The notes below the pieces were generated by a model that ran no database searches, had not been told where the DNA came from, and saw only the letters and a list, made by a program, of their open reading frames with translations. Of a stretch of 64,000 nucleotides of DNA, positions 20,623 to 40,376 are shown piece by piece. The DNA is taken from the NCBI GenBank assembly GCA_963666485.2, contig CAXXUO010000009.1, positions 1 through 64,000 on the forward strand, given 5' to 3'. This DNA comes from Syntrophorhabdaceae bacterium. GTDB lineage: Bacteria; Desulfobacterota; Syntrophorhabdia; Syntrophorhabdales; Syntrophorhabdaceae. The first letter of the stretch is position 1. Each line of letters starts with the position of its first letter. The translations under genes and the position numbers were made by a program.

Positions 20623-20676
20623 ATACAAAATTGGCCCAAAGGCAAAAACAGGTTGAAATTGGTACAAAATTGTTAC
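20623..20676. promoter_or_regulatory. Candidate autoregulatory sites of the sigma-54 activator (TACAAAATTG motif x2)
   Basis: TGGTACAAAATTGT at 20660-20673 is the exact reverse complement of 33272-33285; related ATACAAAATTGG at 20623-20634. Confidence 0.6.
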
Positions 20677-20715
20677 ATATTAGTGGCAGGGCCTTTCGGG
20701 CCCACGGGAGTTTAT

Positions 20716-22236
20716 GTGAGCATCCACAGTTACGAAGAATTAGCCGCACTGCATGCAATAGCGAAGCTCCTCGCCCAGCCTACAGACCTGCGTGACGAAC
20801 TGGACCAGATACTGAACGAGATGCATATCCGCCTCGGAATGCAGCGGGGCATGATATCGCTTTTCGACCGCGAAAAGAACGAGGTCTGGCTCGACATCGC
20901 CCACGACGTCAATATCGAGGGGATGGACGTGACGTATAAGCCGGGGGAAGGCATAACCGGCGAGGTCGCCCAGTCGGGGCGCCCCATGGCCGTCGCGAAC
21001 CTCGGGCACGCGAAGCACTTTCTCGACAGGACCGGTGCGCGCCGCCACCTCAACCGTTCCGAGCTTGCATTCTTATGCGTCCCGATCATGTATGATAACC
21101 AGGTGGTCGGGGTCCTCTCCGCCGACAAGGTCGCGCGGGAGGTCGAAGACCTCGACAAAGAGCTCGCCATGCTTTCCGCGGTCGCGCAGCTCATCGCGAA
21201 ATCCGTGCACATACGCGCCCTGGAGGAAGAGAACAAGCGGCTCAAAAAACTCGTCGGGCTCCCCCGCCCTCCGTCACTCGATATAATCGGCCATTCAAAG
21301 GTCATGCAGGATATCTTCGCACTTGTCTCCCAGGTTGCCGACTCGAAGACAACGGTTCTGATAGGAGGAGAGACCGGGACCGGAAAAGAACTGATCGCCC
21401 AGGCGATCCATATGAACTCCCCCCGGAAAAAGGGGCCCTTCGTGCAGGTCAACTGCGCCGCAATCCCTGATACCCTCATCGAGAGCGAACTCTTCGGTCA
21501 CGAAAAAGGCGCATTCACCGGTGCCCTTCACCAGCGAAGGGGCAGGTTTGAAGAAGCAAACAACGGCACGATCTTCCTTGACGAGGTCGGTGAGCTTTCC
21601 GCGGCGGCGCAGGTAAAACTCCTTCGCGTCCTGCAGGAAAAACGGTTCCAGCCGCTCGGCTCGTCCCGGGTTGTGACCGTCAACGTCCGTATCATCGCGG
21701 CAACCAACAGGGACTTAGAGCAGGACATCCAGGGCGATCGCTTCAGGGCCGACCTGTATTATCGCCTCAACGTTTTCCCGATCTACATGCCGCCGCTCCG
21801 CGAACGCGGCAGCGACATTATCCTTCTCGCCGACCATTTCGTCCTGAAATACGCACGGGAGATGGGCAAGGATGTACGAAACATCTCCACCGCCGCGATA
21901 GAGGCCTTCCTCGCGCACAAATGGCCCGGAAACGTCCGTGAACTGGAGAACTGCATCGAGCGGGCCGTGCTGCTCACGAACACCAACACGGTCGACATCA
22001 TGCACCTGCCGCCCTCCCTGCAGGTCAAGGGGACGAACGGGGACAGGAAAGACTCCGGCAAGCTCTCATCCCTCGTCGAGGCCCAGGAGCGGGCACTCAT
22101 CATCGACATGCTCGAAACGACCGGCGGCAATCAGACCCAGGCCGCCAAGATGCTCGGCACCACGAAGCGTATCATTCAGTACAAGATATCGAAACTCGGT
22201 ATCGATCCGAAAGGGTTTAAGAAAAGCAAAAAGTAA
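20716..22236 (+). CDS. Sigma-54-dependent enhancer-binding protein, GAF-AAA-HTH (NifA-like architecture)
   Basis: [78 protein letters not shown] before GTG 20716. Confidence 0.93.
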
Positions 22237-23044: not shown

Positions 23045-25627
23045 TCAGTTAAAGAAGCAAATCATTTTCTGTTCGACGATCGTCGAGGCGAGGACGAGTT
23101 TTTTCTTGCTTACGTCGTAAACACGGACGATGTCGGCGAATTCCCCGCCTCCGGGAACCAGCTCTTCGAGGATGTTCGGCAGGGCTTTCAGCAGCGAGAG
23201 GTTGAATATGACGTCCTCCTGCTCGGGATAGATGGCCATGTAAAAGATATCCATTTCGACCATGTCCTGGAAGAAATGCGTTCCAAAGGACAGATCCGGT
23301 ATCAGGCTTCCTTCCTTGTAGGCTATCTCGGCTATCGCGGCGACGTTGTTGATCTCGGAGAACGTCACGGGCACGCCCATCGCCGGTGTGGTTGTTCCCC
23401 ACCTGCCGGGGCCGAAAAGTATCGTCGGCATCTCTTCCCTGCCGGGTATCGTCTTGTTTATCTTGCCGACAAGCCGGGCGACGCTGTATTTTTGGGACAA
23501 CTGGAGGCCGGTGTAGCCTTTCGGGTCGACGTAGATGATGCGCGCGATGTTTTTTTGCACGCTGCCGCCCATGAAATTGCCTTCCTGCCTGACCAGTATC
23601 TTGTTCTTCTTGATATTTGCCGGTATCTCCGCGGGCGTGTAATCTTCCTTTGTCTGGAACGGGCGGCACTGCAGGAGGTTTACCTGGATCTTGCCGTCAA
23701 GGTTGAAGTTTGCGGTGAATTCGATATCGACCGGGTAATCGTAAACCCCTTCCAGTCTCTTGAGCATTTTAGACATAAGCCCGGGGAACTCTGTCGAAGA
23801 GAGCAATTCGTCAAACGTCAGCACCCAGATGTCCTTGAATTTCCCCTGGGACCGCATTCTTTCGCTCGCTTCGCTGTCGCGGGTCGCAATGAGGTCGAGG
23901 TGGGCATCGAATCCGTCGGAGAGAACATCGATGGATGGCAGGGATTCGAAAAGGTTTTCCTCGAGGTTCAAAACGTCAACGTAATGCTGGGAAAAACGCG
24001 CTGTCTCCTGCGGCTTGACGTTCGGCTTGATCGAAGGGTTGTCGAGCGCAACGATGCGGGGGTAGTCATTCTCGATCCGGTTGACGGCCCGGGTGCCGAG
24101 CCCGAAGACGAGCCTGAGCATCCCTGCCCTCGGATCGAGGCCCTTCTGCCAGACGAAGGTATTGTACGAGAGCCCGACGCCCGCCAGTTCGGGGAAGAAA
24201 TAGTATTTCCGGTGCGAACCGGAGACGCGCTGGACGAGAAGCGCCATCTGCTCGTCCTGCTGGTCGAGGCCTCTCTGGAGACGGTACGTCAGGGCGTCCA
24301 CGTTCATGGTGCTGGCAAATATCTTTTTGACCGTCTCTTCAAATTTCTCGAAACGCTCTTCGGGCGAACCCTGGTTCGCACAGAAATAGCTTTCGTACTT
24401 TCCGGCAAAGGCATTGCCGAATGCATCCTCGAGAAGGCTGCTCGACCGGACGATTATCGGCGATTGCCCGAAATATTCCAGCATAAGCTGGAAAGGCTCC
24501 AGGACCTCTTCCGGAAATTTCCCTTTCAGCATCTTCTCTTTGAGCTCGACCGCGCTCTCGAAATAGTTCTCGGGAGTTTTATGCGCCATGAGCGTCCGCC
24601 ACAGGCCGTTCTGGACGATGAAGGAGTAGAAGACATCGGACCCGATATAGAACGAGTCGTGCATTTCGAGGTGCCCCGGCCAGTCGAATGCCGGGTCTTT
24701 CCGCAGGATGTTGCGCGACAGCAGCATGCCCGTCGATTTGCCGCCGATGAAACCGGTCCCGATAAGGCGCTCCTTTATCTCGATCAGGTCTTCCAGCGTG
24801 AAATATTGCCTGATGAGGGACAGCATCCTCTTTTCCTTGCTGATCATGACGCGCGAGAGCTTCTCGACCATCGCCCTCTTCTCTTCGCTGTCGGGCGCGT
24901 CGAGCATTTCCTTCGCCTCGATGAATATCCTGTCCCAGTAGTCGAGGTTCCTTTCCGGCCCGGATGTGGCGGCCAGGTTAAGGTAAGAAAATATGTTCGA
25001 TGCGTCGGCGCTGTTAAGGATGGGGACAAAATCGTCACCTTCCATGAGGTGGGGAAGGAACATGGTCGGAGAGTAGCGCTGCCAGGCCTTTATCGGGTGC
25101 ACGCACAGCTTGCCTTGATAATTGTACACATCGAGAAGGACCTGCGTCGTTTCCCTGATCCGGGCTATCGTCTTGAAGGAATGCCGGTTGCGCAGGATCG
25201 AAAAATAGGCGACCGTGTTCAGCTCGAAAAGGTACGGGCACGTGATCACGAAAAAGTTCCCGATCATGAGGTCCGTCGCCCATGTCAGGAGGAGGTCGGA
25301 CAGGCAGTCGAAGACGTAGAAGACGTCGCGGCCTTCCTGCCTGATGATGTAGTGGACCTGCGTGGAGAAGGATTCGAAGCCGATGTCCGCGTTGAGCTTG
25401 TAGATGACGACCTGCCCGCTCGATTCCACGATCGGGGGGTGCTGCGCGAACCGCATGTAGACGACGCGCCGCCCTTTTTCCAGGGCTTCCTTTATGTACG
25501 GGTCGACGAATCTCCTGTAATCGGCGATATCCTCGACCTGGAAGACGACATTGTCGCCCATCTGGAGATAATTCAAGGTTTTATCGAGGCCGCTGATACC
25601 GGTCGAGACCCCGGATAAAGGCTTCAT
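23045..25627 (-). CDS. PEP synthase/PPDK nucleotide-binding (PEP/pyruvate-binding) domain protein with degenerate KaiC/RecA-like N-terminus
   Basis: STGISGLD start; IGGKSTG, IVRSSSLLEDAFGNAFAGKYES, MALLVQ, GLGTRAV, PVDIEF, LLQCRP. Confidence 0.85.
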   Translation of the reverse strand: MKPLSGVSTGISGLDKTLNYLQMGDNVVFQVEDIADYRRFVDPYIKEALEKGRRVVYMRFAQHPPIVESSGQVVIYKLNADIGFESFSTQVHYIIRQEGRDVFYVFDCLSDLLLTWATDLMIGNFFVITCPYLFELNTVAYFSILRNRHSFKTIARIRETTQVLLDVYNYQGKLCVHPIKAWQRYSPTMFLPHLMEGDDFVPILNSADASNIFSYLNLAATSGPERNLDYWDRIFIEAKEMLDAPDSEEKRAMVEKLSRVMISKEKRMLSLIRQYFTLEDLIEIKERLIGTGFIGGKSTGMLLSRNILRKDPAFDWPGHLEMHDSFYIGSDVFYSFIVQNGLWRTLMAHKTPENYFESAVELKEKMLKGKFPEEVLEPFQLMLEYFGQSPIIVRSSSLLEDAFGNAFAGKYESYFCANQGSPEERFEKFEETVKKIFASTMNVDALTYRLQRGLDQQDEQMALLVQRVSGSHRKYYFFPELAGVGLSYNTFVWQKGLDPRAGMLRLVFGLGTRAVNRIENDYPRIVALDNPSIKPNVKPQETARFSQHYVDVLNLEENLFESLPSIDVLSDGFDAHLDLIATRDSEASERMRSQGKFKDIWVLTFDELLSSTEFPGLMSKMLKRLEGVYDYPVDIEFTANFNLDGKIQVNLLQCRPFQTKEDYTPAEIPANIKKNKILVRQEGNFMGGSVQKNIARIIYVDPKGYTGLQLSQKYSVARLVGKINKTIPGREEMPTILFGPGRWGTTTPAMGVPVTFSEINNVAAIAEIAYKEGSLIPDLSFGTHFFQDMVEMDIFYMAIYPEQEDVIFNLSLLKALPNILEELVPGGGEFADIVRVYDVSKKKLVLASTIVEQKMICFFN

Positions 25628-25687: not shown

Positions 25688-28318
25688 CTAACATGTTTCG
25701 CTGAGGCCGTCATTTTCTTTCTTGACGGCCGGCGCGATCCGGGGACGTATCTTCCTGTAGACGTCCTTCGGGTCCTTCTTGGCTCCATCAACGGTGAGCA
25801 GCCTGTCTATCGTTATGCCGAAAAGTTTCTCGTTCTCCTTGAGATATGATTCGATGAGTCCCCAGTCAGCATCGGTGAGCGGTGCATATTCGCCGCCGTT
25901 CAATTGCTCGTCGACCAGTTTTTTCCGCGGGTCGCGGACATAGATCGCCCCGCCGGAGGCGAGCGAAAAGATGTTCGACCCGGGGTACGGCGTATCGTAT
26001 TCGGCAATGGAACCGTCCTCGTCGTTGAAGCCGATCCCGTTAAGAATAACAAACCCGCCGCCATTCAACGGGTCGCCCGCCATGAAGGACTCGGCAAGAT
26101 AGTCGAGCGCCGTGCCGTTGATGACGACCCGGGGCCTTCCGACCGCGTTGATGAGCGGTCTTCCGGCGGCGTTGCCCATGATATAGGCGGACCCGCCCTT
26201 CGCACCGTACATGAATGTCTGGCCGACGTCGCCGAAGACGACGAGCTTTCCGTCTTTCATGATCTGGCAGAGCTGGTCCTGCGCGTTGCCGTGGACGTAG
26301 ATCTCCATCCCGTCGATGCCGGACGCCAGGTAATCGCCGGACGAGCCGTACACGTCGATCCTGACATCCTCGGTGGCCGGCCCGAACCCGCAGCCCGTAA
26401 AGCGCTGGCCGCGGTACTTGTAAACGATGAACCGCCTCCAGCCGAGTTTGAATGCCTTCACTATTGTCACCGCGTCGCAGTCATCGCCCTCGGGCTCGAA
26501 ATGCTCGGCGTCGATGACGAGTATCTTTTCGTCACCGCCCGGTGCGCGGACATCGCCCCTCGTCTCAAAGTTGATCCGGCTGAAAAGCCCGCTGCCCGGT
26601 CCGGTTATGATCGGGACGGCGTCGAGGATGGAATCCAGGGCGATCTTCACAAGGTGCTGCAGTGAGCTTCTTTTTATCGAACCGGTGTTGAACCTGCGGT
26701 CCCAGAGCAGTGTGAGCGCTTCGATCGCCGCCTGGCGGCAGTCATCGCTTTTTTCCGCGTACTTGCGTACCTGGCTTATCGAATGGCGCAGTTCATCCGG
26801 GCTGAAGCCCGTGATGTTGTCCTTCACGAAAGCGAAAAGTTTCTCGGCGATCACCGTGCTGTCGCTCGTCGAGAAGAGCCTGTCCAGGTCGTCCGCCTTT
26901 CCGAAGCTGCCGCTGACGGCTATCGGTTTCGTCACGTCGCAGATCTGTTTGTCCTTCGGGGTTTCAATGACCTTGCCGAATTTATCGGTGCAGACGAGCT
27001 TCATTCCGTCGTCGGTATCTTTTAAGCTGAAGATAAATGAGCCGCCGTCCGTGTAGCTGCCGCCGCGGGCGTTCCAGTACTTGTCGGCGATAGGCCGGAA
27101 GCGGGCGTCCTCGCGTTCGAGCGAGATGAGCGTCGCATCGATCGCCTGTTTCTCCGAGCAGATAAGCCCTATCTGGACGTCGCCTTCCTGCAGGGCGAAG
27201 ACCTGCGGGCGAAGCATGGCCGTGTCCGTGATGCCTATCAGCTGGAACTGGTTGTTCCTGACGTCGTTGCGCGCGATGATGAAGAACCACGGCCCGTCGG
27301 GCGAGGCATTGACGTGATGGGTCTGGATCGCCTTGTACAGGGCCTGCTTGTCTGCCGGCAGCATGTCGAAGTCCATCTCCGATGTCGGCGCCATGGCCTC
27401 TATAAGATATTCGAGAGGATATTTGTAGACCCTGCTCCACAGGTCGAGAAGAAGTGCAGCCTCTTCCGTATCGGTCAGGAACAGGGGAAAGTAATTGCGC
27501 TGTTTCAGGTATTCGTTCACGGACTGGTAGTTCGCGAAGTCGCCGTTGTGCACCAGGGCCTCGTTGAGGGCGCTGAACGGGTGGCACCCGCCGGGATGCC
27601 AGACGCGCCCGCGCGTCGGATACCGCTGGTGGGCGAGCCAGGCATGCGCCTTGAAATCGTCCAGCTTGTAGTACCTGACGACATTTTCAGCATAGCCGAC
27701 GATCTTGAGGATCATCATGTTCCTGCCGTGGGACATGACGAACGCCTTCTTCTCGCCGAGCGACGCATAATACTGCGTATTGATCCTGAAGCTGTTCTGA
27801 TATACGAACTCGTCTTCCGCATCGCGGCGGTCGAGTCCCGAAAAACCGTTCTTCTCGATGAAAGGATCGAGGACGTCATCCTTCACCCGGACAAAATACC
27901 GGGCGATGTCCGGCGGCCTTACGTCGAGACCGATCGCGCGGTGGTCATCGATGGTGTCGAGTTTCTCTTCCTGATCTATCGTAAAGTACGGCTTGATGAA
28001 CGTGTTCTCTATCTCCCCGCGCACAGACGGGTCGAGAAGCGCGATGTGGAACATGTAATCGTCGCGAAGGACCTCGCGCGACACGCCCATCGCCTCGGGG
28101 ACGAAGCCGACCGCGCCGATCCCGCCTCCCTTTCCGTTGCCCCTGTTGTGCATCTGCACCGAGGGCTCGAAGATGTTCTTTCCCGTCACGGGGATGGAAC
28201 TGATGAAACCGGTGACCCCGCAACCGCCCTCTTCCTCCGTGTTCGGAGCGAGAGGGGGGACCTGTGACAGTATCCCGGCACGTGAACGTAATATTTTTTC
28301 GGCATTGTCCGTACGCAT
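25688..28318 (-). CDS. gltB: Glutamate synthase subunit: class II glutamine amidotransferase (GltB1) fused to GXGXG beta-helix (GltB3)
   Basis: EGGCGVTGF Ntn Cys, HNRGNGKGGG, HQRYPT, HPF, VHNGD, DGPW, LRP; GSSGDYLASG, GDVGQTFMYG, GNAAGR, GGAIYVR. Confidence 0.9.
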   Translation of the reverse strand: MRTDNAEKILRSRAGILSQVPPLAPNTEEEGGCGVTGFISSIPVTGKNIFEPSVQMHNRGNGKGGGIGAVGFVPEAMGVSREVLRDDYMFHIALLDPSVRGEIENTFIKPYFTIDQEEKLDTIDDHRAIGLDVRPPDIARYFVRVKDDVLDPFIEKNGFSGLDRRDAEDEFVYQNSFRINTQYYASLGEKKAFVMSHGRNMMILKIVGYAENVVRYYKLDDFKAHAWLAHQRYPTRGRVWHPGGCHPFSALNEALVHNGDFANYQSVNEYLKQRNYFPLFLTDTEEAALLLDLWSRVYKYPLEYLIEAMAPTSEMDFDMLPADKQALYKAIQTHHVNASPDGPWFFIIARNDVRNNQFQLIGITDTAMLRPQVFALQEGDVQIGLICSEKQAIDATLISLEREDARFRPIADKYWNARGGSYTDGGSFIFSLKDTDDGMKLVCTDKFGKVIETPKDKQICDVTKPIAVSGSFGKADDLDRLFSTSDSTVIAEKLFAFVKDNITGFSPDELRHSISQVRKYAEKSDDCRQAAIEALTLLWDRRFNTGSIKRSSLQHLVKIALDSILDAVPIITGPGSGLFSRINFETRGDVRAPGGDEKILVIDAEHFEPEGDDCDAVTIVKAFKLGWRRFIVYKYRGQRFTGCGFGPATEDVRIDVYGSSGDYLASGIDGMEIYVHGNAQDQLCQIMKDGKLVVFGDVGQTFMYGAKGGSAYIMGNAAGRPLINAVGRPRVVINGTALDYLAESFMAGDPLNGGGFVILNGIGFNDEDGSIAEYDTPYPGSNIFSLASGGAIYVRDPRKKLVDEQLNGGEYAPLTDADWGLIESYLKENEKLFGITIDRLLTVDGAKKDPKDVYRKIRPRIAPAVKKENDGLSETC

Positions 28319-28333
28319 TGGTATTACCCCGTT

Positions 28334-29815
28334 TTATTTACTGTAGTCTATGTGTTCCAGGAGGTCGGTGCGCCCGACGAGCTCGCGCACGCTCCTCATC
28401 CCGAATTTCTGTAATATCTCGACGAGCTGGACATTCCAGGCATGGTACATATTTGTCAGTCGCTGGGTCGCCCATTCCTCGTTGAAGAGGTCGGCAAGGA
28501 CCGAGTCGGTCGACGCGATACCCCGCGCACACCCGCGTCCGGATTCACAGTTCCCGCACCTGACGCACTCGAGGGAGACCATTTCGGCGGTGCCGATGAC
28601 GCAGCCATCCGCACCGAGGCAGATCGCCTTGGCGAGATCGTGGGCAGTCCTGACGCCTCCCGACGCGATAAGCGTCATCTGGTCGCGCACCCCTTCATCC
28701 TTCAGGAAATTGTGGACCTTCGTGATGGCATACTCGATCGGCATGGCGATATTCTTCTTCGCTATGTCCGGTGCCGCGCCCGTGCCGCCGTACCCGCCGT
28801 CGATGTGGATGATATGGGCGCCGGCGTAGTAGGAACCGACCGCCACCATGTCCACGTCGTTCGGGGTGGAGACCTTGACCGAGACCAGGGCCTTCGGGTT
28901 GATCTCCTTTATCCAGTCGATGTGTTTCTTGTGGTCCTCGATCGAGTACACGCTGTGGAACGGGAAGGGTGAAAAGAGCGGCGTGCCCCTTACGGCCTCG
29001 CGCATCCGTGCAACGCTCTCCGTGTTCTTCTCGCCGAGCAGGTGGCCGCCGAGGCCGGGCTTCGCGCCCTGGGCATATTTGAACTCCACGATGTTGACGC
29101 GCTGTATCGTCTCCTCGCGCACGCCGAAGAGCCCGGTCGCCACCTGAGTTATGACATGGTCATCGTAGGGAACGAGCATCTCGGGATAGCCGCCTTCGCC
29201 CGTACATGTGAACGTGTTCCAGATGGCGGCGTTGCGGGCCTTCGAGACCATTGTGGCGAGACTTACCGAACCGAATGACATACCGCCGCCGTAGACGGGA
29301 GTTGATATCACAATATTGGCGCGGCCGTCGTTGCGCCTGTTGAGCGGTATCTCGGTCGATATCTCGAACTTGTCGACCTTCGGGCGGCCTGCGGGGAATT
29401 TCAGCCGGAGCTTGTCGAAGCCGCCGCCCGAATTCCCGACGTTGTATTCAAGGTCTGTCCGTTCCGGGGGATACCCTGTCTCCGCCATGATCCACGTTCC
29501 CGTGATCATATCCGCGGTCCAGCGGTAATCGCCCAGCGTTTCGTACATCGGGTTGAGGGAAACAGAAAGGGCCTTGCGCGGGCACTTGTTAACGCAGTAG
29601 AAGTCGTTCTTTTCGCATTCAAAGCCGATGCACTTGTAATCGATCGGGGGCCGCACCTTGTTGTGGCCCTCGAGCCTTTCGTGCACACCGTACGGGCAGC
29701 ATTTCGCGCATGTGCTGCAATTGATGCACGCGTTCGACCGCGTCACCTTGTATTTCGGGACCTGGTGTTTGAACCGGGACGGCATGGGGTTGATCTTTAC
29801 ACTTGATGGTTTCAT
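28334..29815 (-). CDS. gltB: Glutamate synthase FMN-binding subunit (GltB2) with N-terminal ferredoxin domain
   Basis: CINCSTCAKCCP; GGMSFGS, TGEGG, QVATGLFGV, KYAQGAKPGLGGHL, DGGYGGTGAAP, SGGVR, CVRCGNC..GRGC. Confidence 0.92.
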   Translation of the reverse strand: MKPSSVKINPMPSRFKHQVPKYKVTRSNACINCSTCAKCCPYGVHERLEGHNKVRPPIDYKCIGFECEKNDFYCVNKCPRKALSVSLNPMYETLGDYRWTADMITGTWIMAETGYPPERTDLEYNVGNSGGGFDKLRLKFPAGRPKVDKFEISTEIPLNRRNDGRANIVISTPVYGGGMSFGSVSLATMVSKARNAAIWNTFTCTGEGGYPEMLVPYDDHVITQVATGLFGVREETIQRVNIVEFKYAQGAKPGLGGHLLGEKNTESVARMREAVRGTPLFSPFPFHSVYSIEDHKKHIDWIKEINPKALVSVKVSTPNDVDMVAVGSYYAGAHIIHIDGGYGGTGAAPDIAKKNIAMPIEYAITKVHNFLKDEGVRDQMTLIASGGVRTAHDLAKAICLGADGCVIGTAEMVSLECVRCGNCESGRGCARGIASTDSVLADLFNEEWATQRLTNMYHAWNVQLVEILQKFGMRSVRELVGRTDLLEHIDYSK

Positions 29816-31224
29816 AGGCTTACCGTCTCACTTTTTTTAAATAATTTTCCGAATGTATCGGCATCGATCTCTTCATAGAATATGGCCCTGCCGGTCTCCC
29901 CGCGCAGGCGCCGCGCCTCGCGGATGCCCATGGCGCCCATGACCTCGAGAAGCTGGGAGTGCCAGGCGCCCATGAGGTTCACCATGCGCTGCGTTATCGT
30001 GCCGACGCTCAAGGATTCGACGCCTTCCGCGTAGACCAGTATCTTTTCCGGCTCTTCGTAGAGCCTGGTACCGAGCGCGATCAGAAGGGGGATATCGATG
30101 GCGGTAAGGTCCGCGCCGCATATCATGGCCTTTGGCACATGCTCGGCCATCGCGATCCCGCCGGAGAACAGTATCGTCACTTCGTCGCGCACCCTCTCAT
30201 CGACGAGCTTGAGATGGACGGCGCGGATCACATCACGCGAAAGAAGGGGTTTTTCTCCACCGACCGTACCTATCTCCATTCCACGGTAGTCGGCAATAAC
30301 GTGAATGATCTCCGCGCCGGTCTTTGTCAGCCTGAGGACCGCATTCTCCACGGAGCGTGTCGCGGGGATACGGACGATGGTCAGTATGTTCCCGAGTTTC
30401 TTTACCTTTTCTATAACTGCCGGGAGCGACTTTTCGAGCTCCCCGTCATACTCGAATGCAACGGCCCGCGCCGACCGGATAAGGTCCTGGTTCGCATCTA
30501 TGTCCTTGTACGGCACGACCGGGATTATGTGCTGCATGTCGCCTTTCACATCCGGCGTAATGTCGTTCGCGGACAATATAACGAATGTGTTCAATTTGGC
30601 TGCGGCCTTGACAACGCCGGCCTTTATGCTGGCGGCAAGCTTCTCGTACGTGAAATCGAACACGATAGGTATGGGTATATCGATCGTCTGGTGGGTTTTC
30701 GATACCAGCTGCGCGTTGTCGTCGAAAACGAGGTGGTTAAGTTTCCTGCCCAGCTCGACAGAGGTGCTGATATACTCCCTGCCGTGGATGCCGTCGCGCG
30801 TCGGACGGACGATCTCGGACATGTCCGTCCACATCCCGTCAAACCCGGGCCCCGTGAACGGGCCGCGGTAGCCGGCGCCGGTGACCGGCACCTTGCCGTC
30901 CTCCGCCTGTTTCCAGAGGGTTATGAACATGTCGGGCTTCCAGTACGACCCGCCGATGTTGAGGAAATCCCCGTCGAGGGACTTTTCGAGCGCACCGCGG
31001 GGGCATTCCTGGATGCACCGGAAGCAGTTCCTGCACGTTACCGTGCTCGGCTGCGCCATTTTGCGGGGGTCTCCGTCGCGTCCGCGCCTGTGTACTTCGT
31101 AGATGCAGACCTTCGTGCATCTTCCGCAGTTGATGCAGTTCTCTCCCCGCTCGATACTGAATTTATAGATGAAATCCAGCTCGAGTGGTGTGACCTTCGT
31201 ATCGATGTGATATTTTTTTGGCAT
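29812..31224 (-). CDS. Second, divergent GltB2-like subunit with 2x[4Fe-4S] domain
   Basis: CINCGRCTKVC, CRNCFRCIQECP, RPTRDGIHGRE, SGGIAMAEHVPKAMICGAD, MGAMGI; lacks GGMS and QGAKPG motifs. Confidence 0.85.
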   Translation of the reverse strand: MPKKYHIDTKVTPLELDFIYKFSIERGENCINCGRCTKVCIYEVHRRGRDGDPRKMAQPSTVTCRNCFRCIQECPRGALEKSLDGDFLNIGGSYWKPDMFITLWKQAEDGKVPVTGAGYRGPFTGPGFDGMWTDMSEIVRPTRDGIHGREYISTSVELGRKLNHLVFDDNAQLVSKTHQTIDIPIPIVFDFTYEKLAASIKAGVVKAAAKLNTFVILSANDITPDVKGDMQHIIPVVPYKDIDANQDLIRSARAVAFEYDGELEKSLPAVIEKVKKLGNILTIVRIPATRSVENAVLRLTKTGAEIIHVIADYRGMEIGTVGGEKPLLSRDVIRAVHLKLVDERVRDEVTILFSGGIAMAEHVPKAMICGADLTAIDIPLLIALGTRLYEEPEKILVYAEGVESLSVGTITQRMVNLMGAWHSQLLEVMGAMGIREARRLRGETGRAIFYEEIDADTFGKLFKKSETVSL

Positions 31225-31250
31225 ATGTCAGTTCCCGACCTTATGTATTT

Positions 31251-33083
31251 TCAATTATTCCTGTCGACCATTTCCCAGTATTCCGAGCTTGCGTCGACCT
31301 TCTTGATGAACTCGTCGATCTTTTCCGCCGGCCGGCCTCCGGTCATTGTCTCTATCCTCTTTTCCAGCGCGTCCCACAGGTTCATGAGCTCGAGGTTCGT
31401 CTGGCATATCTCTTCGCACGCCCGGCAGTGCATGCACATGAAGACCTTTTCCGCTTCTTCTTTCGATACCGGTTTGCCCTCGATCAGCTTCTTTGCCAGC
31501 GCTATCTTCCCCTTTGCCGTCATTTCCTCGTTGCCGGTCACGAGGTACGCGGGGCAGACAGCGATGCAGTTGCCGCATTTCGCGCAGGCATGGGTCATCA
31601 GCTCGAAATCGAGGTCATCCACCTTTTTCACCTTGCCGAAGACCATGGTCGCCAGGGTCCCGAGAACGGGTGCGAGCGCGCTCAGCGTGCCGATCCCGAA
31701 ACCGAAGACGGCCGGGTTGAACATAAAGGAGTTGACCCGGAAGAACTTGCCGGGGTTCATGATATTGTTCGGGTCCACCTTCGCTTTATAGGCCAGCAGT
31801 TCTTTTTTCTGTTTATCGTTATAAAGGTGATCAATGAAGCCCGCGTTCCAGATGCCGAGCCCGTACGGCTCCGCCCCGTTGGCCACCGCCGCCCGCGTGA
31901 GGAGCATGGTGATCGGCAGGTCGATGTAGTACTTGAATTTGCGTGAATCGCACAGGAAGTTGGTCATGATCAGTGCTTTTTTCGCATCGAGGATATAGGA
32001 ATCCACAAATATCTCGACACCGAAGGAAGAGCCCAGTTTTTTCGCCTTCTCGATGAACTTCGCCGCGGACGCGATCGGGATGATGCTCTCGCTTGCCAGG
32101 ATCGTCGGGCCAAGCCGTTTTGTCTTCATCCCGAAAAGGCGCTCGTTCCACAGGTAGCTTGCCACGTATTTGGGTGCCTCTTCCAGCTGGTAATGAGTTT
32201 TGACGATCTTCATGAACTCCGCGTCATCCTCTGTGCTTCCGAACTCGACGAGGACCGACGGGCTTTTCTTGAACTCGGTGAGGTGCATGATCTTGTTGAT
32301 ATCGTCGAGGTGTGTCGCATCGAGGAACCGGATGACGTTCGGCCGTACCTTGTCGGCCTGCCCTGACCCCATGAACTGGGCGATAAATGAAAAGGCGTCC
32401 TTATCGCTTGCGAAGTAGAACAGGTGGGGACAGGACGCGGCGGGGACGTCGCGCAGTTTCAGGTTGACATCGACGATGATCCCGAAAAGGCCTTCCGTGG
32501 AGACAAAATGGGCGAACTCAGGGTCGGTCGGGGTCAGCTTTTTCGATTCCCCGAGCGCGGTCACGACCGTCATCGAGACGATCTGTGTTGACAGGTGGCC
32601 GTACCGGAGACTGTTTATCCCGTAGCCGCCGGTGGCGATCCAGCCGCCGACCGTCGAGAACTTGCTCGAAGGGTATGTCATCAGGCACAACCCTTCCTTC
32701 TTCGCGAGGATGTCGATATCGGCCCAGCGGGCGCCGGCCTCGACCGTGACGGTCTTCTGGCCCTTGTTGAGGTACAGGATCTTCCGAAAAGGGGAAAGGT
32801 CAATAACGATCCCCGCATTTGTCGGGATGACCCCGCCGAAGCCCCAGGAAGCGGCGCCCCGCGGAATGACAGGGACCTTATTATCGTTGGCGAACGCGAG
32901 GACCTGCTTTATCTCGTCCACATTTCCCGGCTGAACGACAAAGTCGGGCTGCACCTTGAAAAGATTTTTGGTCATGATCGTGGGGACATCCCCGATATCA
33001 TGGCTGTACATCTCTTTCTTTTCCTCTTGTTCGATTATCCTGATGTTTGGTGCGATATTCTTGAATTGGTCTGAAAGTTTCAT
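31251..33083 (-). CDS. GlcD/D-lactate-dehydrogenase-like FAD-binding protein with C-terminal Fe-S dicluster
   Basis: PDFVVQP, IPRGAASWGFGG, TVGGWIATGGYG, TEGLFGII, DPNNIMNPGK; CAKCGNCIAVCP and CMHCRACEEIC. Confidence 0.88.
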   Translation of the reverse strand: MKLSDQFKNIAPNIRIIEQEEKKEMYSHDIGDVPTIMTKNLFKVQPDFVVQPGNVDEIKQVLAFANDNKVPVIPRGAASWGFGGVIPTNAGIVIDLSPFRKILYLNKGQKTVTVEAGARWADIDILAKKEGLCLMTYPSSKFSTVGGWIATGGYGINSLRYGHLSTQIVSMTVVTALGESKKLTPTDPEFAHFVSTEGLFGIIVDVNLKLRDVPAASCPHLFYFASDKDAFSFIAQFMGSGQADKVRPNVIRFLDATHLDDINKIMHLTEFKKSPSVLVEFGSTEDDAEFMKIVKTHYQLEEAPKYVASYLWNERLFGMKTKRLGPTILASESIIPIASAAKFIEKAKKLGSSFGVEIFVDSYILDAKKALIMTNFLCDSRKFKYYIDLPITMLLTRAAVANGAEPYGLGIWNAGFIDHLYNDKQKKELLAYKAKVDPNNIMNPGKFFRVNSFMFNPAVFGFGIGTLSALAPVLGTLATMVFGKVKKVDDLDFELMTHACAKCGNCIAVCPAYLVTGNEEMTAKGKIALAKKLIEGKPVSKEEAEKVFMCMHCRACEEICQTNLELMNLWDALEKRIETMTGGRPAEKIDEFIKKVDASSEYWEMVDRNN

Positions 33084-33146: not shown

Positions 33147-33162
33147 AGCAAAAGAGATGCCA
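33147..33162 (-). promoter_or_regulatory. Sigma-54 (-24/-12) promoter of the glutamate synthase operon
   Basis: Minus strand reads TGGCATCTCTTTTGCT (GG-N10-GC), about 64 bp upstream of the start codon. Confidence 0.82.
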
Positions 33163-33268: not shown

Positions 33269-33312
33269 CGTACAATTTTGTACCATTTGAACCGGTAAAA
33301 TACATAATTGTT
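33269..33312. promoter_or_regulatory. Candidate enhancer (UAS) pair between divergent sigma-54 promoters
   Basis: Near-palindrome GTACAATTTTGTAC (33270-33283) and related ATACATAATTGTT (33300-33312). Confidence 0.65.
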
Positions 33313-33439: not shown

Positions 33440-33455
33440 TGGCATATTTTTCGCA
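33440..33455 (+). promoter_or_regulatory. Sigma-54 (-24/-12) promoter of the glnA-purF-amtB-glnK-amtB operon
   Basis: TGGCATATTTTTCGCA (GG-N10-GC), about 90 bp upstream of ATG 33547. Confidence 0.78.
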
Positions 33456-35750: not shown

Positions 35751-37205
35751 ATGACCGAACGGGAAAAGGAAAATATGCCCTGTACACCGAATAGCAACGA
35801 TCCGGAAAAGCTATACCCGCGCGAGGAATGCGGCGTGTTCGCGATCCACGGGAACGACGACGCCTCGCGGGTAGCTTTTTACGGCCTTTTCGCCCTGCAG
35901 CACCGGGGGCAGGAATCTGCCGGCATCATAAGCTCGGACGGGCGCGACGTGCGGCAGCACAAGGGTATGGGGCTTGCCTCGGAGGTGTTCGGGGAGGAGG
36001 CGCTTCAGCGCCTTCCCGGCCGCCTGGCCATCGGCCACGTCCGCTACTCGACGACCGGGGCGTCGACGCTCATCAATGCCCAGCCTTTTCTCGTCCGTTT
36101 CGAGAACGAGTATTACGCCCTGGCCCATAACGGCAATATCCTGAACGCGCAGAACCTGCGCGAGAAGCTGGAGGCGCGCGGGTCGATCTTCCAATCAACC
36201 ATGGACAGCGAGGTGATCATCCACCTCATGGCGCACCATCTCAAACACGGGTTGGAGCATGCCCTTACCGCGAGCCTTGGCCGTCTCAAGGGCGCTTACA
36301 GCCTCGTTATGATGACCCGCAACAGGATCGTGGCCGCGCGCGACCCCGGGGGTTTCCGGCCGCTGTCGCTCGGTCAGCTGAACGGGAGCTGGGTCGTTGC
36401 CTCCGAGACCTGCGCTTTTGACCTTGTCGGCGCGCAGTATGTCCGGGATGTTGAACCGGGAGAGATCGTTATTATAGATGATGCGGGATTGAAAAGCCTG
36501 AAGCCTTTCCCCGAGGTGAGACGCAGCCACTGCATTTTCGAGCTTGTCTATTTCGCCCGCCCGGACAGCCAGGTATTCGGCCGGAACGTGTACATGTGCC
36601 GCAAACAATTCGGGCACGAACTGGCCCGCGAATACGATCCGCACGTTGACATGATAATACCCTTCCCCGACTCGGGTGTGTACGCCGCGATTGGCTATTC
36701 CGAGGAAAGCGGCGTCCCGTTCGAGATGGGCATGATACGTAACCACTATGTCGGGCGCACATTCATCAACCCGTCGCAGCAGATGCGGGACCTCGGTGTT
36801 CGCGTCAAGTTGAATCCCGTAAAAAGCCTTCTCGAAGGAAAATCGATCCTGATCGTGGACGACTCCATCATCCGCGGGACGACAAGCCGGAACCGCGTGA
36901 AGAACCTGCGGGAAAGCGGCATACGCGAGATCCACATGGCGGTCAGCTGCCCGCCGACAGTATATCCCTGTCCCTACGGGATAGATTTCTCGACAAAAGG
37001 AGAGCTCATAGCGACAAAAAAAGACAGCGAGAAAGCAATCGCCAAATACATTGGCCTGGATTCCCTGCACTATCTTACCCTCGACGGCATGATAAAGGCG
37101 ACGGGCCTCGACAAAAGCTGCTTTTGCCTTGCCTGTTACGATGGCAAGTACCCCGTCACCCCGCCGAGGATCATCAACAAGCACTGCCTGGAATCCTGCC
37201 AGTAA
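35751..37205 (+). CDS. purF: Amidophosphoribosyltransferase (Fe-S type)
   Basis: REECGVF, LQHRGQESAG, HVRYST, AHNGN, CIFELVYFARPDS, VDDSIIRGTT, PCPYGID, CLAC; start may be 35775. Confidence 0.95.
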   Translation: MTEREKENMPCTPNSNDPEKLYPREECGVFAIHGNDDASRVAFYGLFALQHRGQESAGIISSDGRDVRQHKGMGLASEVFGEEALQRLPGRLAIGHVRYSTTGASTLINAQPFLVRFENEYYALAHNGNILNAQNLREKLEARGSIFQSTMDSEVIIHLMAHHLKHGLEHALTASLGRLKGAYSLVMMTRNRIVAARDPGGFRPLSLGQLNGSWVVASETCAFDLVGAQYVRDVEPGEIVIIDDAGLKSLKPFPEVRRSHCIFELVYFARPDSQVFGRNVYMCRKQFGHELAREYDPHVDMIIPFPDSGVYAAIGYSEESGVPFEMGMIRNHYVGRTFINPSQQMRDLGVRVKLNPVKSLLEGKSILIVDDSIIRGTTSRNRVKNLRESGIREIHMAVSCPPTVYPCPYGIDFSTKGELIATKKDSEKAIAKYIGLDSLHYLTLDGMIKATGLDKSCFCLACYDGKYPVTPPRIINKHCLESCQ

Positions 37206-37224
37206 ATCCTAACGGAGGTGCCTC

Positions 37225-38595
37225 ATGAAAAGATTTATTGCCGTACTGATGCTTTTAAGTTTCATCGCAATGCCCGCCGTGATGTTCGCGCAGGCGCAGA
37301 CCCAGCCCGCAGACGTCAAGCAGCAGCAGGCGGTCGAAGCATCGGACGCTAAGAAGGCACCTGCCAAGGCCGACACCGGCGACACGGCGTGGATGATCGT
37401 GGCGACCGCGCTTGTCATGCTGATGACGCCGGGCCTTGCCTTCTTTTACGGCGGCATGGTCGGGAGAAAGAACATTCTCGGTATCCTGATGCAGTGTTTT
37501 ACGATCCTGTGCCTCATCAGTGTCCAATGGGTGCTCTACGGGTACAGCCTGTCTTTCGCACCCGGAAAGGGCTTCTGGGGAGGCCTCGAGTGGGTGGGGC
37601 TTGCCGGTGTGGGGGCCGCCCCGTTCGCGGATTATGCCCCGACCATCTCGCATCAGCTCTTCATGGTATTCCAGATGATGTTCGCCATCATCACGCCTGC
37701 CCTGATCATCGGGGCCTTCGCGGAACGGATGAAGTTCTCGGCGTTCGTCATCTTCATTCTTCTCTGGGCCACGTTCGTCTATGACCCTGTCTGCCACTGG
37801 GTATGGGGTGTCGGCGGGTGGCTCAAGGAACTCGGCGCCCTCGATTTTGCGGGCGGTACGGTCATTCACATCAACGCCGGCATTGCCGCGCTCATGACGG
37901 CAATATTCATCGGGAAACGCAAGGGAGTGGTAAATCACTCGATACTGCCCCACAATCTGCCCTTCACGATCCTGGGGACCGCACTCTTGTGGTTCGGGTG
38001 GTTCGGCTTTAACGCGGGATCGTCCCTCGGGGCAAACGACGTGGCGGTCAATGCCTTTATCGTCACCAATACGGCTGCGGCCGCGGCAGGCTTGAGCTGG
38101 GCCATCATCGACTGGATATTCAACAAGAAACCCACGATGCTCGGAATGGCGACGGGAGCGGTGGGCGGACTTGTCGCCATCACCCCGGCCGCCGGTTTCG
38201 TGAGCCCCGTTTCCGCGATCATTATCGGCTTCGTCGTCAGCATTATCTGCTACTTTGCCGTGGCATACATCAAACCGCGGCTCGGCTATGACGATGCACT
38301 CGACGTCTTTGGCGTCCACTGCATCGGCGGCATCTGGGGCGCCCTCGCCACAGGGCTTTTCGCTTCGAAGGCCGTAAATCCCGCCGGGGCTGACGGGCTT
38401 TTCTTCGGCAACCCGAAACAGCTGCTGATCCAGGCGATCACGGTCGCTGTGACGCTTGCCTACAGCTTCGTCGCCAGTTTCGTCATATACAAGCTCATCG
38501 ATGTCGTCATGAAGGTGCGTGTGCGGGAAAAAGACGAGATCATAGGCCTTGACCTGACCCAGCACCACGAAAAAGCATATACCGTCCTGGAATAG
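37225..38595 (+). CDS. amtB: Ammonium transporter
   Basis: MTPGLAFFYGG, FQMMFAIITPAL, DFAGGTVIHINAG, WFGWFGFNAGS, DDALDVFGVH. Confidence 0.96.
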   Translation: MKRFIAVLMLLSFIAMPAVMFAQAQTQPADVKQQQAVEASDAKKAPAKADTGDTAWMIVATALVMLMTPGLAFFYGGMVGRKNILGILMQCFTILCLISVQWVLYGYSLSFAPGKGFWGGLEWVGLAGVGAAPFADYAPTISHQLFMVFQMMFAIITPALIIGAFAERMKFSAFVIFILLWATFVYDPVCHWVWGVGGWLKELGALDFAGGTVIHINAGIAALMTAIFIGKRKGVVNHSILPHNLPFTILGTALLWFGWFGFNAGSSLGANDVAVNAFIVTNTAAAAAGLSWAIIDWIFNKKPTMLGMATGAVGGLVAITPAAGFVSPVSAIIIGFVVSIICYFAVAYIKPRLGYDDALDVFGVHCIGGIWGALATGLFASKAVNPAGADGLFFGNPKQLLIQAITVAVTLAYSFVASFVIYKLIDVVMKVRVREKDEIIGLDLTQHHEKAYTVLE

Positions 38596-38606
38596 GAGGG
38601 ATAAAA

Positions 38607-38948
38607 ATGAAACTGATCATAGCCATAATTCAACCTGACAGATTGGAAGCGGTAAAACAGGAGCTTTACAAACAGGAGGTCTTCCTCATAACCGTAAACG
38701 AGGTCCTGGGCCACGGACGGCAGATGGGTGTCGCCGAGGTGTACCGGGGAACCAAGGAAATGGGGAACCTGCTGAGGAAGATACGGCTCGAGATCGCCGT
38801 GAACGAGGATTTCGTCGAGAAAACGATAGGCGCCATCGTGAAGGGCGCCCAGACAGGAGAATCCGGGGACGGCAAGATCTTTATCCTCGACCTTGTCGAA
38901 TGCGTCCGGATCCGGACGGAAGAAAGAGGCAATATCGCCATAGGCTAG
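38607..38948 (+). CDS. glnK: P-II nitrogen regulatory protein
   Basis: MKLIIAIIQP, GHGRQ, YRG, TGESGDGKIF, RIRTEE; adjacent to amtB. Confidence 0.95.
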   Translation: MKLIIAIIQPDRLEAVKQELYKQEVFLITVNEVLGHGRQMGVAEVYRGTKEMGNLLRKIRLEIAVNEDFVEKTIGAIVKGAQTGESGDGKIFILDLVECVRIRTEERGNIAIG

Positions 38949-39023
38949 GGCCCGCCCCCTACAAGGGCCTTGCCGGGTAGAAACGCTCATTTTACCTGCG
39001 GCGAACAAACAGGGAGGTTTTGG

Positions 39024-40376
39024 ATGAAAAAGTTAGCTGTTCTCGTTGTCGCGCTGCTCTTTGTGTGCCTTGCCGTGGCCGTATTTGCACAGGAAGGACA
39101 GGAGGCGCCAGCCAAAACCTCCCTCACGCCGCCCGCCGCGCAGGCAGGCAGGATCGATACCGGCGACACCGCGTGGGTCCTTTTTGCAACCGCGCTCGTC
39201 ATGCTGATGACCCCCGGCCTCGCCTTCTTTTACGGGGGCATGGTCGGCAGGAAGAACGTCCTCGGCGTCCTGATGCAGTGCATTATCATCCTGTGCATCA
39301 TAAGCATCCAGTGGGTGCTTTTCGGGTACAGCCTTTCCTTCGGGCCCGCGCGCGGATTCTGGGGGGGGCTTCAGTGGTTTGGGCTCGCAGGCGTCGGGAC
39401 AGCCCCCAATCCCGATTACGCCGCAACGATACCGCACCAGCTTTTCATGGCCTTCCAGATGATGTTCGCGATCATAACCCCCGCCCTCATCATAGGCGCC
39501 TTTGCGGAGCGCATGAAGTTTTCCGCCTTTGTCATCTTCACCATCCTGTGGGCGACCTTCGTCTACGACCCCGTGTGCCGCTGGGTCTGGGGCTCCGGCG
39601 GATGGCTCAAGGAGATGGGTGTCATCGATTTCGCCGGAGGGATAGTCGTCCACATCAACGCGGGGATAGCGGCTCTCATGACGGCTATCTTCATCGGGAA
39701 GCGCAACGGCGGCAGCAAGGCGATCCTTCCGCACAACCTGCCTTTCACCATACTCGGTACGGGCCTTCTCTGGTTCGGGTGGTTCGGTTTCAATGCCGGA
39801 AGTTCGCTCGGCGCAAACGGCATCGCCGTCAACGCATTCGTGGTCACGAACACCGCCGGGGCTGCCGCGGGGCTTACCTGGGCCATCCTGGACCGGGTCT
39901 TCAATGAAAAACCGACAGTGCTCGGAACCGTTACGGGCGCGGTCGGGGGACTCGCCGCCATCACGCCCGCCGCCGGCTACGTCGGACCGTTCTCGGCGAT
40001 CATCATCGGTGTCGTCGTCAGCCTCCTGTGCTACACGGCAGTATCGGTGCTCAAGCCCCGGTTCGGGTATGACGATGCGCTGGACGTCTTCGGGGTCCAC
40101 TGCATCGGGGGTATCTGGGGAACGATCGCAGCCGGGCTTTTCGCCTCGAAGGCAATCAACCCGGACGGCCCGAACGGGCTCTTCTTCGGGAACCCGAAGC
40201 AGTTCTACGTCCAGCTTCTCGCCGCCGGCGTGACCCTCGCCTACAGCTTCATAGCCAGTTTCATCATATACAAGGCCATCGATATTTTCATGCGTGTCCG
40301 CGTCGGGGAAAAGGAAGAGATCATCGGCCTCGACCTTACCCAACACCACGAGAAGGCATACACGGTCCTCGAATAG
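39024..40376 (+). CDS. amtB: Ammonium transporter, second paralogue
   Basis: Same motifs as the first copy and identical C-terminus GLDLTQHHEKAYTVLE; GGAGG RBS. Confidence 0.95.
   Translation: MKKLAVLVVALLFVCLAVAVFAQEGQEAPAKTSLTPPAAQAGRIDTGDTAWVLFATALVMLMTPGLAFFYGGMVGRKNVLGVLMQCIIILCIISIQWVLFGYSLSFGPARGFWGGLQWFGLAGVGTAPNPDYAATIPHQLFMAFQMMFAIITPALIIGAFAERMKFSAFVIFTILWATFVYDPVCRWVWGSGGWLKEMGVIDFAGGIVVHINAGIAALMTAIFIGKRNGGSKAILPHNLPFTILGTGLLWFGWFGFNAGSSLGANGIAVNAFVVTNTAGAAAGLTWAILDRVFNEKPTVLGTVTGAVGGLAAITPAAGYVGPFSAIIIGVVVSLLCYTAVSVLKPRFGYDDALDVFGVHCIGGIWGTIAAGLFASKAINPDGPNGLFFGNPKQFYVQLLAAGVTLAYSFIASFIIYKAIDIFMRVRVGEKEEIIGLDLTQHHEKAYTVLE

Follow-up and report, generated by a model that had tools for sequence, protein, structure and literature searches.

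How does a glutamate synthase receive its electrons when its operon encodes no GltD? The question is raised by four genes on the minus strand of a 64,000-nucleotide (nt) stretch of contig CAXXUO010000009.1, from assembly GCA_963666485.2 of a Syntrophorhabdaceae bacterium; we call this whole stretch the window. High-affinity nitrogen assimilation runs through glutamate synthase, for which the known electron inputs are NAD(P)H by way of GltD, ferredoxin and, putatively, F420 by way of FrhB. The operon encodes a protein with flavin adenine dinucleotide (FAD) motifs and iron-sulfur (Fe-S) clusters, then a flavin-less paralog of GltB2, GltB2 itself and a GltB1-B3 fusion (Table 1), with intergenic gaps of 26, -4 and 15 nt. 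This is the gene order given by the initial annotation, and the domain matches agree with it; GltD is absent from the operon, as that annotation had said, and from the rest of the window. The enzyme is a known one, glutamate synthase; what appears new is its architecture with a proposed GlcD-fold input subunit. The FAD protein is probably the dedicated electron-input subunit of a putative four-subunit enzyme, and the evidence for that role, and for the donor that might feed it, is presented below.

Table 1. Features of the operon and its surroundings, in window coordinates
Feature	Position	Strand	Remarks
FAD protein of GlcD/LDHD fold, C-terminal 2x[4Fe-4S], metal site lost; proposed electron-input subunit	33083-31251	-	610 residues; Pfam FAD_binding_4, FAD-oxidase_C and 4Fe-4S dicluster
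Flavin-less GltB2 paralog, N-terminal 2x[4Fe-4S]; probable electron adaptor and counterpart of GltB's central domain	31224-29812	-	470 residues; Pfam dicluster and weak Glu_synthase (1e-5)
GltB2: synthase barrel with flavin mononucleotide (FMN), N-terminal Fe-S dicluster, C-terminal Cys cluster motif	29815-28334	-	493 residues; Pfam dicluster and Glu_synthase (3e-87)
GltB1-GltB3 fusion: class II (N-terminal nucleophile, Ntn) amidotransferase, propeptide before Cys33, linker, GXGXG beta-helix	28318-25688	-	876 residues; Pfam GATase_6 and GXGXG
Sigma-54-type (-24/-12) site	33147-33162	-	79 nt upstream of the FAD gene; recurs upstream in 41/74 related loci
Pair of ACA-N4-TGT palindromes (33272-33281, 33302-33311)	33272-33311		between two divergent promoters
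Divergent sigma-54-type site ahead of the glnN run	33440-33455	+	serves glnN, purF, amtB, glnK, amtB
GAF-domain sigma-54 activator (NifA-like), candidate operon regulator	20653-22236	+	homolog cluster in 21/80 loci
PPDK_N-domain protein	23045-25627	-	60 nt downstream of gltB1-B3, co-oriented; outside the conserved core; homolog in 29/80 loci

The glutamate synthase core

Compared with solved glutamate synthases, GltB2 aligns with the FMN domain (8e-50 to A. brasilense GltB), and it carries the motifs GGMS, QVA, KxAQGAKPG and DGxxGGTG in addition to its Cys cluster motif. Of 114 relatives, 90 to 114 retain these flavin and substrate motifs, and every one has KxAQGAKPG. The catalytic Cys33 of GltB1-B3 lies within EEEGGCG, behind a propeptide recognised from the sequence, whose processing is predicted. 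Relatives of this fusion keep HNGDFAN (82/82), HQRYPT (79/82) and ExEGGCG (65/82), and its GXGXG domain matches PF01493 at 1.7e-13 (51 bits, cut-off 32.5). Judged by these motifs, the operon encodes three parts of a glutamate synthase: amidotransferase, FMN barrel and beta-helix. In one bacterial phylum, 44 of 151 genomes were found to have this core.

The operon's GltB2 is the only one in the source genome, which is 99% complete. Checking for gltD elsewhere in that genome, as had been suggested, did turn up two homologs above the TIGR01316 cut-off; both are on another contig (C1) and of another type, one fused to a PyrK-like subunit and the other adjoining one. This layout is described as NfnAB in PMC5736913. 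In our synteny sample, the best 80 of 439 genome loci, gltD is not among the neighbour clusters that recur at three or more loci. The source genome also has two genes of the glutamate dehydrogenase family, so that the operon is one of several possible glutamate routes.

Could the core belong to a related amidotransferase-coupled enzyme, similar to N-methylglutamate synthase or acting on another 2-oxoacid acceptor? MgsABC likewise consists of split GltB homologs, and the presence of MetF beside the core in sister loci may point to C1 chemistry. We regard this as very unlikely given the ammonium-assimilation context: amtB and glnK adjoin the operon, glnA lies directly upstream in 6 of 8 archaeal loci examined, and the glnN product matches GSIII_N at 1e-77 while reaching only 46.5 bits against the TIGR03105 cut-off of 469.6. 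The single GltB2 of the genome points the same way. MgsABC clusters with genes for gamma-glutamylmethylamide synthetase and N-methylglutamate dehydrogenase; no such cluster is among the recurring neighbours of the operon across the 80 loci. The context as predicted from these genes fits nitrogen assimilation rather than methylamine use.

The FAD protein as a probable dedicated partner

In the 80-locus sample, the FAD gene is followed by the GltB2 paralog in all 74 loci with room downstream, at a distance of at most 300 nt in 72 of them and of 303 and 325 nt in the other two. All four genes stand in order in 49 of the 49 related loci that are long enough to contain them; because this order is kept, the operon is real and conserved, not a product of chance. 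Among 121 archaeal genomes sampled, 14 have the paralog, and the FAD gene lies upstream of it in 11 of these; of the other three paralogs, one is at a contig edge and two are partial or broken. The synteny survey that the initial annotation called for therefore finds the FAD gene conserved with gltB. The closest named homologs are in records of Syntrophorhabdaceae and unclassified deltaproteobacteria, and operons of the FAD type occur in records named Syntrophorhabdus, Smithella, Syntrophus, Syntrophomonas, Dehalococcoidia, Methanosarcinales and Methanophagales. One of the hosts, Syntrophus buswellii DM-2 (locus L103), is cultured and has a complete genome.

The two proteins are also joined in nature. 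Among 150 representative homologs, 14 are fusions of the FAD protein with the paralog; five of the 14 also carry the GltB2 and GltB1-B3 parts, and one of these five is circularly permuted. A predicted complex of the paralog with residues 81-610 of the FAD protein reached a score of 0.58, whereas the best of three controls stood at 0.00, with contacts in 100% agreement and a partner pLDDT (predicted local distance difference test) of 84. The multimer prediction that had been proposed thus yields a pass, and a weak one: the mark was reached by 116 of 157 solved pairs and 2 of 215 mismatched pairs, and of the pairs that reached it, 18 solved ones and both mismatches did so at 0.60 or below. In one genome (locus L174, G154) the FAD gene and the paralog stand together, with GltB2 on another contig, which suggests that the pair moves as a unit.

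A remodelled active site

The structure of the FAD protein is predicted with a pLDDT of 94 and has the FAD fold of the VAO/PCMH family with a cap domain. Its closest solved folds are D-2-hydroxyacid dehydrogenases (Z 30.7-31.9), with mouse LDHD at Z 31.9 and a root-mean-square deviation (rmsd) of 2.7 over 431 aligned residues. Like this family (mouse LDHD, 8jde; LctD, 7qh2; human D2HGDH, 6lpn; GlcD), it has the fold, the FAD-site motifs and an equivalent of the carboxylate-binding Arg347 of mouse LDHD, namely Arg315; unlike them, it adds a C-terminal hydrophobic helix and an Fe-S dicluster. The helix, at residues 457-482, has a Kyte-Doolittle value of 1.73, and 27 of 64 relatives exceed 1.6. 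A search of the cap domain against the ESM Atlas returned only generic FAD-oxidase_C clusters, below 0.9.

The initial annotation had noted EPYGLG in place of the metal-binding EHGxG, with FAD motifs kept, and had seen no HxxxGNxH. Both observations hold. EPYGLG occupies residues 405-410, and alignment with LDHD of mouse and LctD of A. woodii shows a deletion (before Tyr407) where the Glu ligand should be, Tyr407 in place of the base His, and Tyr363 and Ala370 at the first and second metal-binding His positions. In LDHD the corresponding His398, His405, Glu442 and His443 are each essential, as is Arg347, according to PMC10589216. Of these five residues the FAD protein keeps only the Arg.

The altered site is itself conserved. 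Across 128 FAD homologs, Trp312 is kept in 125, Arg315 in 119, Glu332 in 112 and Tyr407 in 115; a basic residue is found at position 315 in 119 and at position 320 in at least 107, and the first metal His is kept in at least 38. Four canonical paralogs in the source genome keep both His positions, and their base is His in all four. On the strength of these alignments, the FAD protein is not a standard 2-hydroxyacid dehydrogenase, and its active site appears remodelled, not decayed. Automatic annotations would have it otherwise: the gene would encode a lactate or glycolate dehydrogenase of the usual kind, independent of the glutamate synthase and only sharing its regulation, and glcD is indeed its best NCBIfam match, at 112 bits against a cut-off of 568. 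We give this account almost no credence, since the defining metal and base residues are lost here, both His positions being retained in four paralogs of the same genome, and since the synteny is fixed and 14 fusions exist. Synteny, fusions and lost residues support the idea, put forward in the initial annotation, of a glutamate synthase with many Fe-S clusters that receives its electrons by way of a GlcD-like flavoprotein turned to a new use. The donor, which that annotation took to be non-standard, may be NAD(P)H entering by a new path.

The flavin-less paralog as a likely central domain

The paralog is a full-length relative of GltB2 (27% identity) in which four FMN-site motifs are missing, as they are in 125 of 125 relatives. 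A different motif, DMSEIVRPTRDGIHGRE, is kept in 123 of 125 paralogs and is absent from all 114 GltB2 sequences; the segment that contains it aligns colinearly, at 1.1 bits, with GltB 460-540, the start of the central domain. Natural fusions of the paralog to GltB2 exist, about 1000 residues long. A model of one, from an alignment of 6 fusions and 27 paralogs, has a pLDDT of 75 and a predicted template modelling score (pTM) of 0.68, and aligns colinearly to GltB 448-1185 (Z 32.2, rmsd 5.8, 585 residues). A mixed alignment was dropped because it placed paralogs wrongly on the GltB2 half. In the bacterial clade to which the window belongs, all 71 paralogs have lost the cysteines of the C-terminal cluster, which all 10 archaeal and all 44 MvhD/Met-type members retain. 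The model suggests that the paralog likely plays the role of GltB's central domain, and we infer a division of labour between it and GltB2 after duplication.

A proposed exchangeable input module

Related genomes often have the same core with a different gene upstream. Of 61 related genomes, 43 have the paralog; a close FAD ortholog is present in 6 and is always adjacent to it. The other 37 have a paralog of 40-48% identity and no close FAD ortholog. In all 15 of these that were examined, MetF lies directly upstream together with MvhD; 12 of them also have MetV, and 5 have HdrC/B downstream. All five MvhD-type genomes checked contain two or three copies of MetF, the adjacent one being additional. 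In the 151-genome phylum sample, 30 of 45 matches were examined: 3 are of the FAD type, 26 have MvhD and/or MetV/MetF, and 1 is at a contig edge.

In a tree of paralogs thinned to less than 80% identity, leaving out one row with an unknown upstream gene, the MvhD/MetVF type, with 31 of the 71 rows, is set apart from the rest by a single branch (SH-aLRT 96). By this tree the MvhD/Met type is one clade, and gene order indicates that the input module of this glutamate synthase is exchangeable. FastTree placed the FAD-type paralogs as basal, but an approximately unbiased (AU) test did not reject them as a single clade (p 0.43), so we make no claim about which module is the older. A precedent for exchangeable input is found in the FrhB-linked glutamate synthase clusters described in PMC9012536.

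Loci with this core and MvhD, MetV and/or MetF upstream (L017-L031, L140-L166, L175-L186) often have HdrA/C/B nearby, and possibly encode a glutamate synthase fed by Hdr or by methyl-tetrahydrofolate. The gene set that flanks the core in these sister genomes is that of Moorella thermoacetica HdrABC-MvhD-MetVF, as described in PMC5736913. In our source genome, unlike the sister genomes, the Moorella-like run (hdrC-hdrB-hdrA(L)-mvhD-metV-metF, G000:C1:70890-79779) is on another contig, far from gltB; a coupling to glutamate synthase is suggested by gene order only.

The electron donor

In the mechanism that we propose, the four products would assemble into one enzyme, with the paralog packed against GltB2 as the central domain of GltB is. 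GltB1, its Cys33 exposed after removal of the propeptide, would free ammonia from glutamine. The FAD subunit would take a hydride from a soluble two-electron donor, most likely NAD(P)H, and single electrons would then pass from FAD through its two [4Fe-4S] clusters to the two clusters of the paralog, on to those of GltB2 and finally to FMN, which would reduce 2-iminoglutarate to glutamate.

The source genome has no MqnA/D match and no MenD match over the cut-off, two archaeal hosts (G104, G132), which may be incomplete, have no match to electron-transferring flavoprotein (ETF), and genes for electron carriers do not recur beside the operon in 3 or more of the 80 loci. For these reasons a soluble, universal hydride donor fits best. 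They also bear on transfer from reduced ETF or membrane quinol, in the manner of LctD-EtfAB or the membrane D-lactate dehydrogenases. LctD (7qh2) is among the best folds, the source genome has 8 ETF matches, and the hydrophobic helix could suit such a partner; against this, no etf cluster lies beside the operon in at least 3 of 80 loci, two archaeal hosts appear to lack ETF, and no menaquinone genes were found in the source genome. The link to ETF at which the initial annotation had hinted is weakened accordingly, and we judge this reading quite improbable. For a subunit of this role, ETF or quinol is a rather improbable donor, and so is any donor outside the classes named here.

Direct reduction of the Fe-S chain by ferredoxin or flavodoxin, with the FAD protein as a relay or structural part that has no small-molecule substrate, is a further alternative. 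Ferredoxin-like diclusters are present in three subunits, the parent family's catalytic residues have been lost, and ferredoxin-dependent glutamate synthases exist (PDB 1llw). However, the FAD-site motifs and the cap residues Trp312, Arg315, Glu332 and Tyr407 are under strong selection, and an enzyme fed by ferredoxin would need neither a two-electron flavin nor the swap to MvhD/MetVF. We consider this version unlikely; ferredoxin, flavodoxin or another protein carrier as the donor to an input subunit is doubtful.

Sister FAD proteins that share the cap motifs of the operon's FAD protein either have CCG domains or are encoded ahead of Fe-S/CCG genes. Of 43 sister loci of at least 8 kb, 28 encode GcvH, lipoate ligases or E2; of the 23 loci that bear E2, 15 have E3 and 8 have none within the DNA examined. 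One sister protein fuses three GcvH domains to FAD-Fe-S-CCG. Metal-free GlcD-like proteins with a CCG domain and GcvH occur inside acetoin/2-oxoacid dehydrogenase and lipoylation operons (L112-L120, L218-L263; P0182). We infer from these neighbourhoods that the same flavin site may serve two unrelated pathways in bacteria and archaea. The two HdrA proteins examined in MvhD-type loci carry a GltD-like insert; PMC2702500 uses the name HdrL for an Hdr fusion with a GltD-like part. NAD(P)H leads among the donors because the module stands where GltD, Hdr with a GltD-like insert or E3 otherwise stand. The conserved basic residues at positions 315 and 320 also count in its favour. Given the subunit role, it is our first, still tentative, choice.

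A small organic acid or alcohol is a close second, because the carboxylate Arg is kept, and we regard it as a possible donor. Here the same four-subunit enzyme would oxidise malate, lactate, glycerol 3-phosphate or a similar compound without a metal, Arg315 binding the carboxylate or phosphate and Tyr407 acting as base. The closest solved folds are those of D-2-hydroxyacid dehydrogenases, W-x-x-R and Tyr407 are conserved, and couples near -190 mV can drive glutamate synthesis. Set against this are the loss of the His base and of the complete set of three metal ligands, none of which LDHD can do without (PMC10589216), the absence of any transporter or pathway gene for such a substrate clustering in at least 3 of 80 loci, and the use of the same site in lipoate operons with differing carbon substrates. 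As a complete account it is doubtful. Two other candidates were set aside: 2-hydroxyglutarate is not favoured, as Thr390 and Lys401 of D2HGDH appear to correspond, in a tentative register, to Met319 and Ala330, and F420 as a universal donor was rejected in view of the bacterial hosts.

The broadest reading, which we offer tentatively, is of a widespread third glutamate synthase architecture. In it, the flavin-less, Fe-S-bearing copy of the catalytic barrel would stand in for the central domain and also be the point at which one electron module or another plugs in. The GlcD-fold subunit would oxidise NAD(P)H without a metal, and anaerobes would use it again, together with CCG domains and GcvH, for lipoyl redox chemistry. 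A number of observations speak against our main explanation, the four-subunit enzyme with NAD(P)H as its most likely donor. The FAD protein has no Rossmann motif, which counts against NAD(P)H; the Arg that it retains is the carboxylate-binding one of LDHD; and E3 is present in 15 of the 23 lipoate loci with E2, so that the module is not simply a substitute for E3. The hosts of the loci are related and some loci were sampled twice, so the counts overstate independence, and two archaeal loci (L134, L136) have a partial or broken paralog with other genes upstream and no FAD gene. The complex score of 0.58 sits where passes are often wrong. The central-domain match of 1.1 bits compares with 49.5 bits to the FMN domain; the key loop (115-149) of the fusion model falls below a pLDDT of 50, the model may echo solved GltB, and Foldseek on it gave an rmsd of 13-16 A. 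The two genes of the glutamate dehydrogenase family would be alternative routes, and the NfnAB-type GltD homologs could act in trans. Finally, no capped VAO/PCMH enzyme is known to use NAD(P)H.

Promoters and neighbouring genes

The sigma-54-type site upstream of the FAD gene compares with a genome-wide background rate of 0.003 per 250 nt. The palindrome pair was found in 29 of 33 promoter regions examined, whose hosts are related, and the two palindromes are likely activator sites common to both divergent promoters. The GAF-domain activator is a candidate to bind them. The divergent run begins with glnN, a type III glutamine synthetase gene with a likely start at 33547. A second type III glutamine synthetase, 52% identical to that of the window, is encoded at G000:C1:117555-119651. 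In the regulation that we envisage, nitrogen limitation would switch on the operon together with glnN, amtB and glnK.

Recurring neighbours across the 80 loci are GlnN/GlnA, Amt and GlnK as well as the glutamine consumers GuaA, CarAB, PurF and HisFH; apart from glnN and purF, these names were assigned from motifs. Glutamine-using amidotransferases (PurF, GuaA, CarAB, HisFH and a class I GATase) cluster with the operon in bacteria and archaea (window 35751-40376, plus strand; L037-L111, L168-L173). In the window, glnK is flanked by two copies of amtB. The PPDK_N-domain protein (860 residues) scores far below the cut-offs for phosphoenolpyruvate synthase, and a gene similar to glutamate dehydrogenase adjoins its homolog in locus L021; it may be a nitrogen-linked regulator or ligase.

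Comparison with known systems and significance

The operon shares with bacterial GltB/GltD (A. brasilense 1ea0, 2vdc and 6s6s; B. subtilis-type 7mfm) and with ferredoxin GltS (Synechocystis 1llw) the Ntn amidotransferase with a propeptide, the FMN barrel motifs, the Cys cluster motif and the GXGXG helix; in the fusion model of moderate confidence, paralog and GltB2 map colinearly onto the central and FMN domains of GltB. Unlike those enzymes, it is split over three genes in permuted order and has no GltD; the putative central domain forms a full barrel of its own, encoded separately and provided with an Fe-S dicluster, and GltB2 has an extra dicluster. The archaeal-type split GltB1/B2/B3, including the putative F420-dependent forms with FrhB (PMC9012536), resembles it in having split genes and a dedicated, exchangeable input gene, whereas the operon has two specialised GltB2 copies, a B1-B3 fusion and a proposed GlcD-fold input in place of an FrhB- or GltD-like one. 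It also differs from the ETF-coupled LctD type in that no etfAB is encoded alongside. In a literature search that took in main texts and few subscription journals, we found no published study of this operon or electron route, and the accessible parts of PMC9765008, PMC5764234, PMC6046458 and bioRxiv 10.64898/2026.10.01.755906 do not describe it.

Knowing the donor would reveal how anaerobes short of energy meet the cost of assimilating nitrogen. It would also give a function to a large, misannotated GlcD-like subfamily (our homolog search returned 295 representatives at E up to 1e-30, not all of them of the FAD-protein subfamily) and open the question of where GltB's central domain came from to testing. 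If NAD(P)H is indeed the donor, its metal-free oxidation would be new chemistry for the capped VAO/PCMH flavoproteins.

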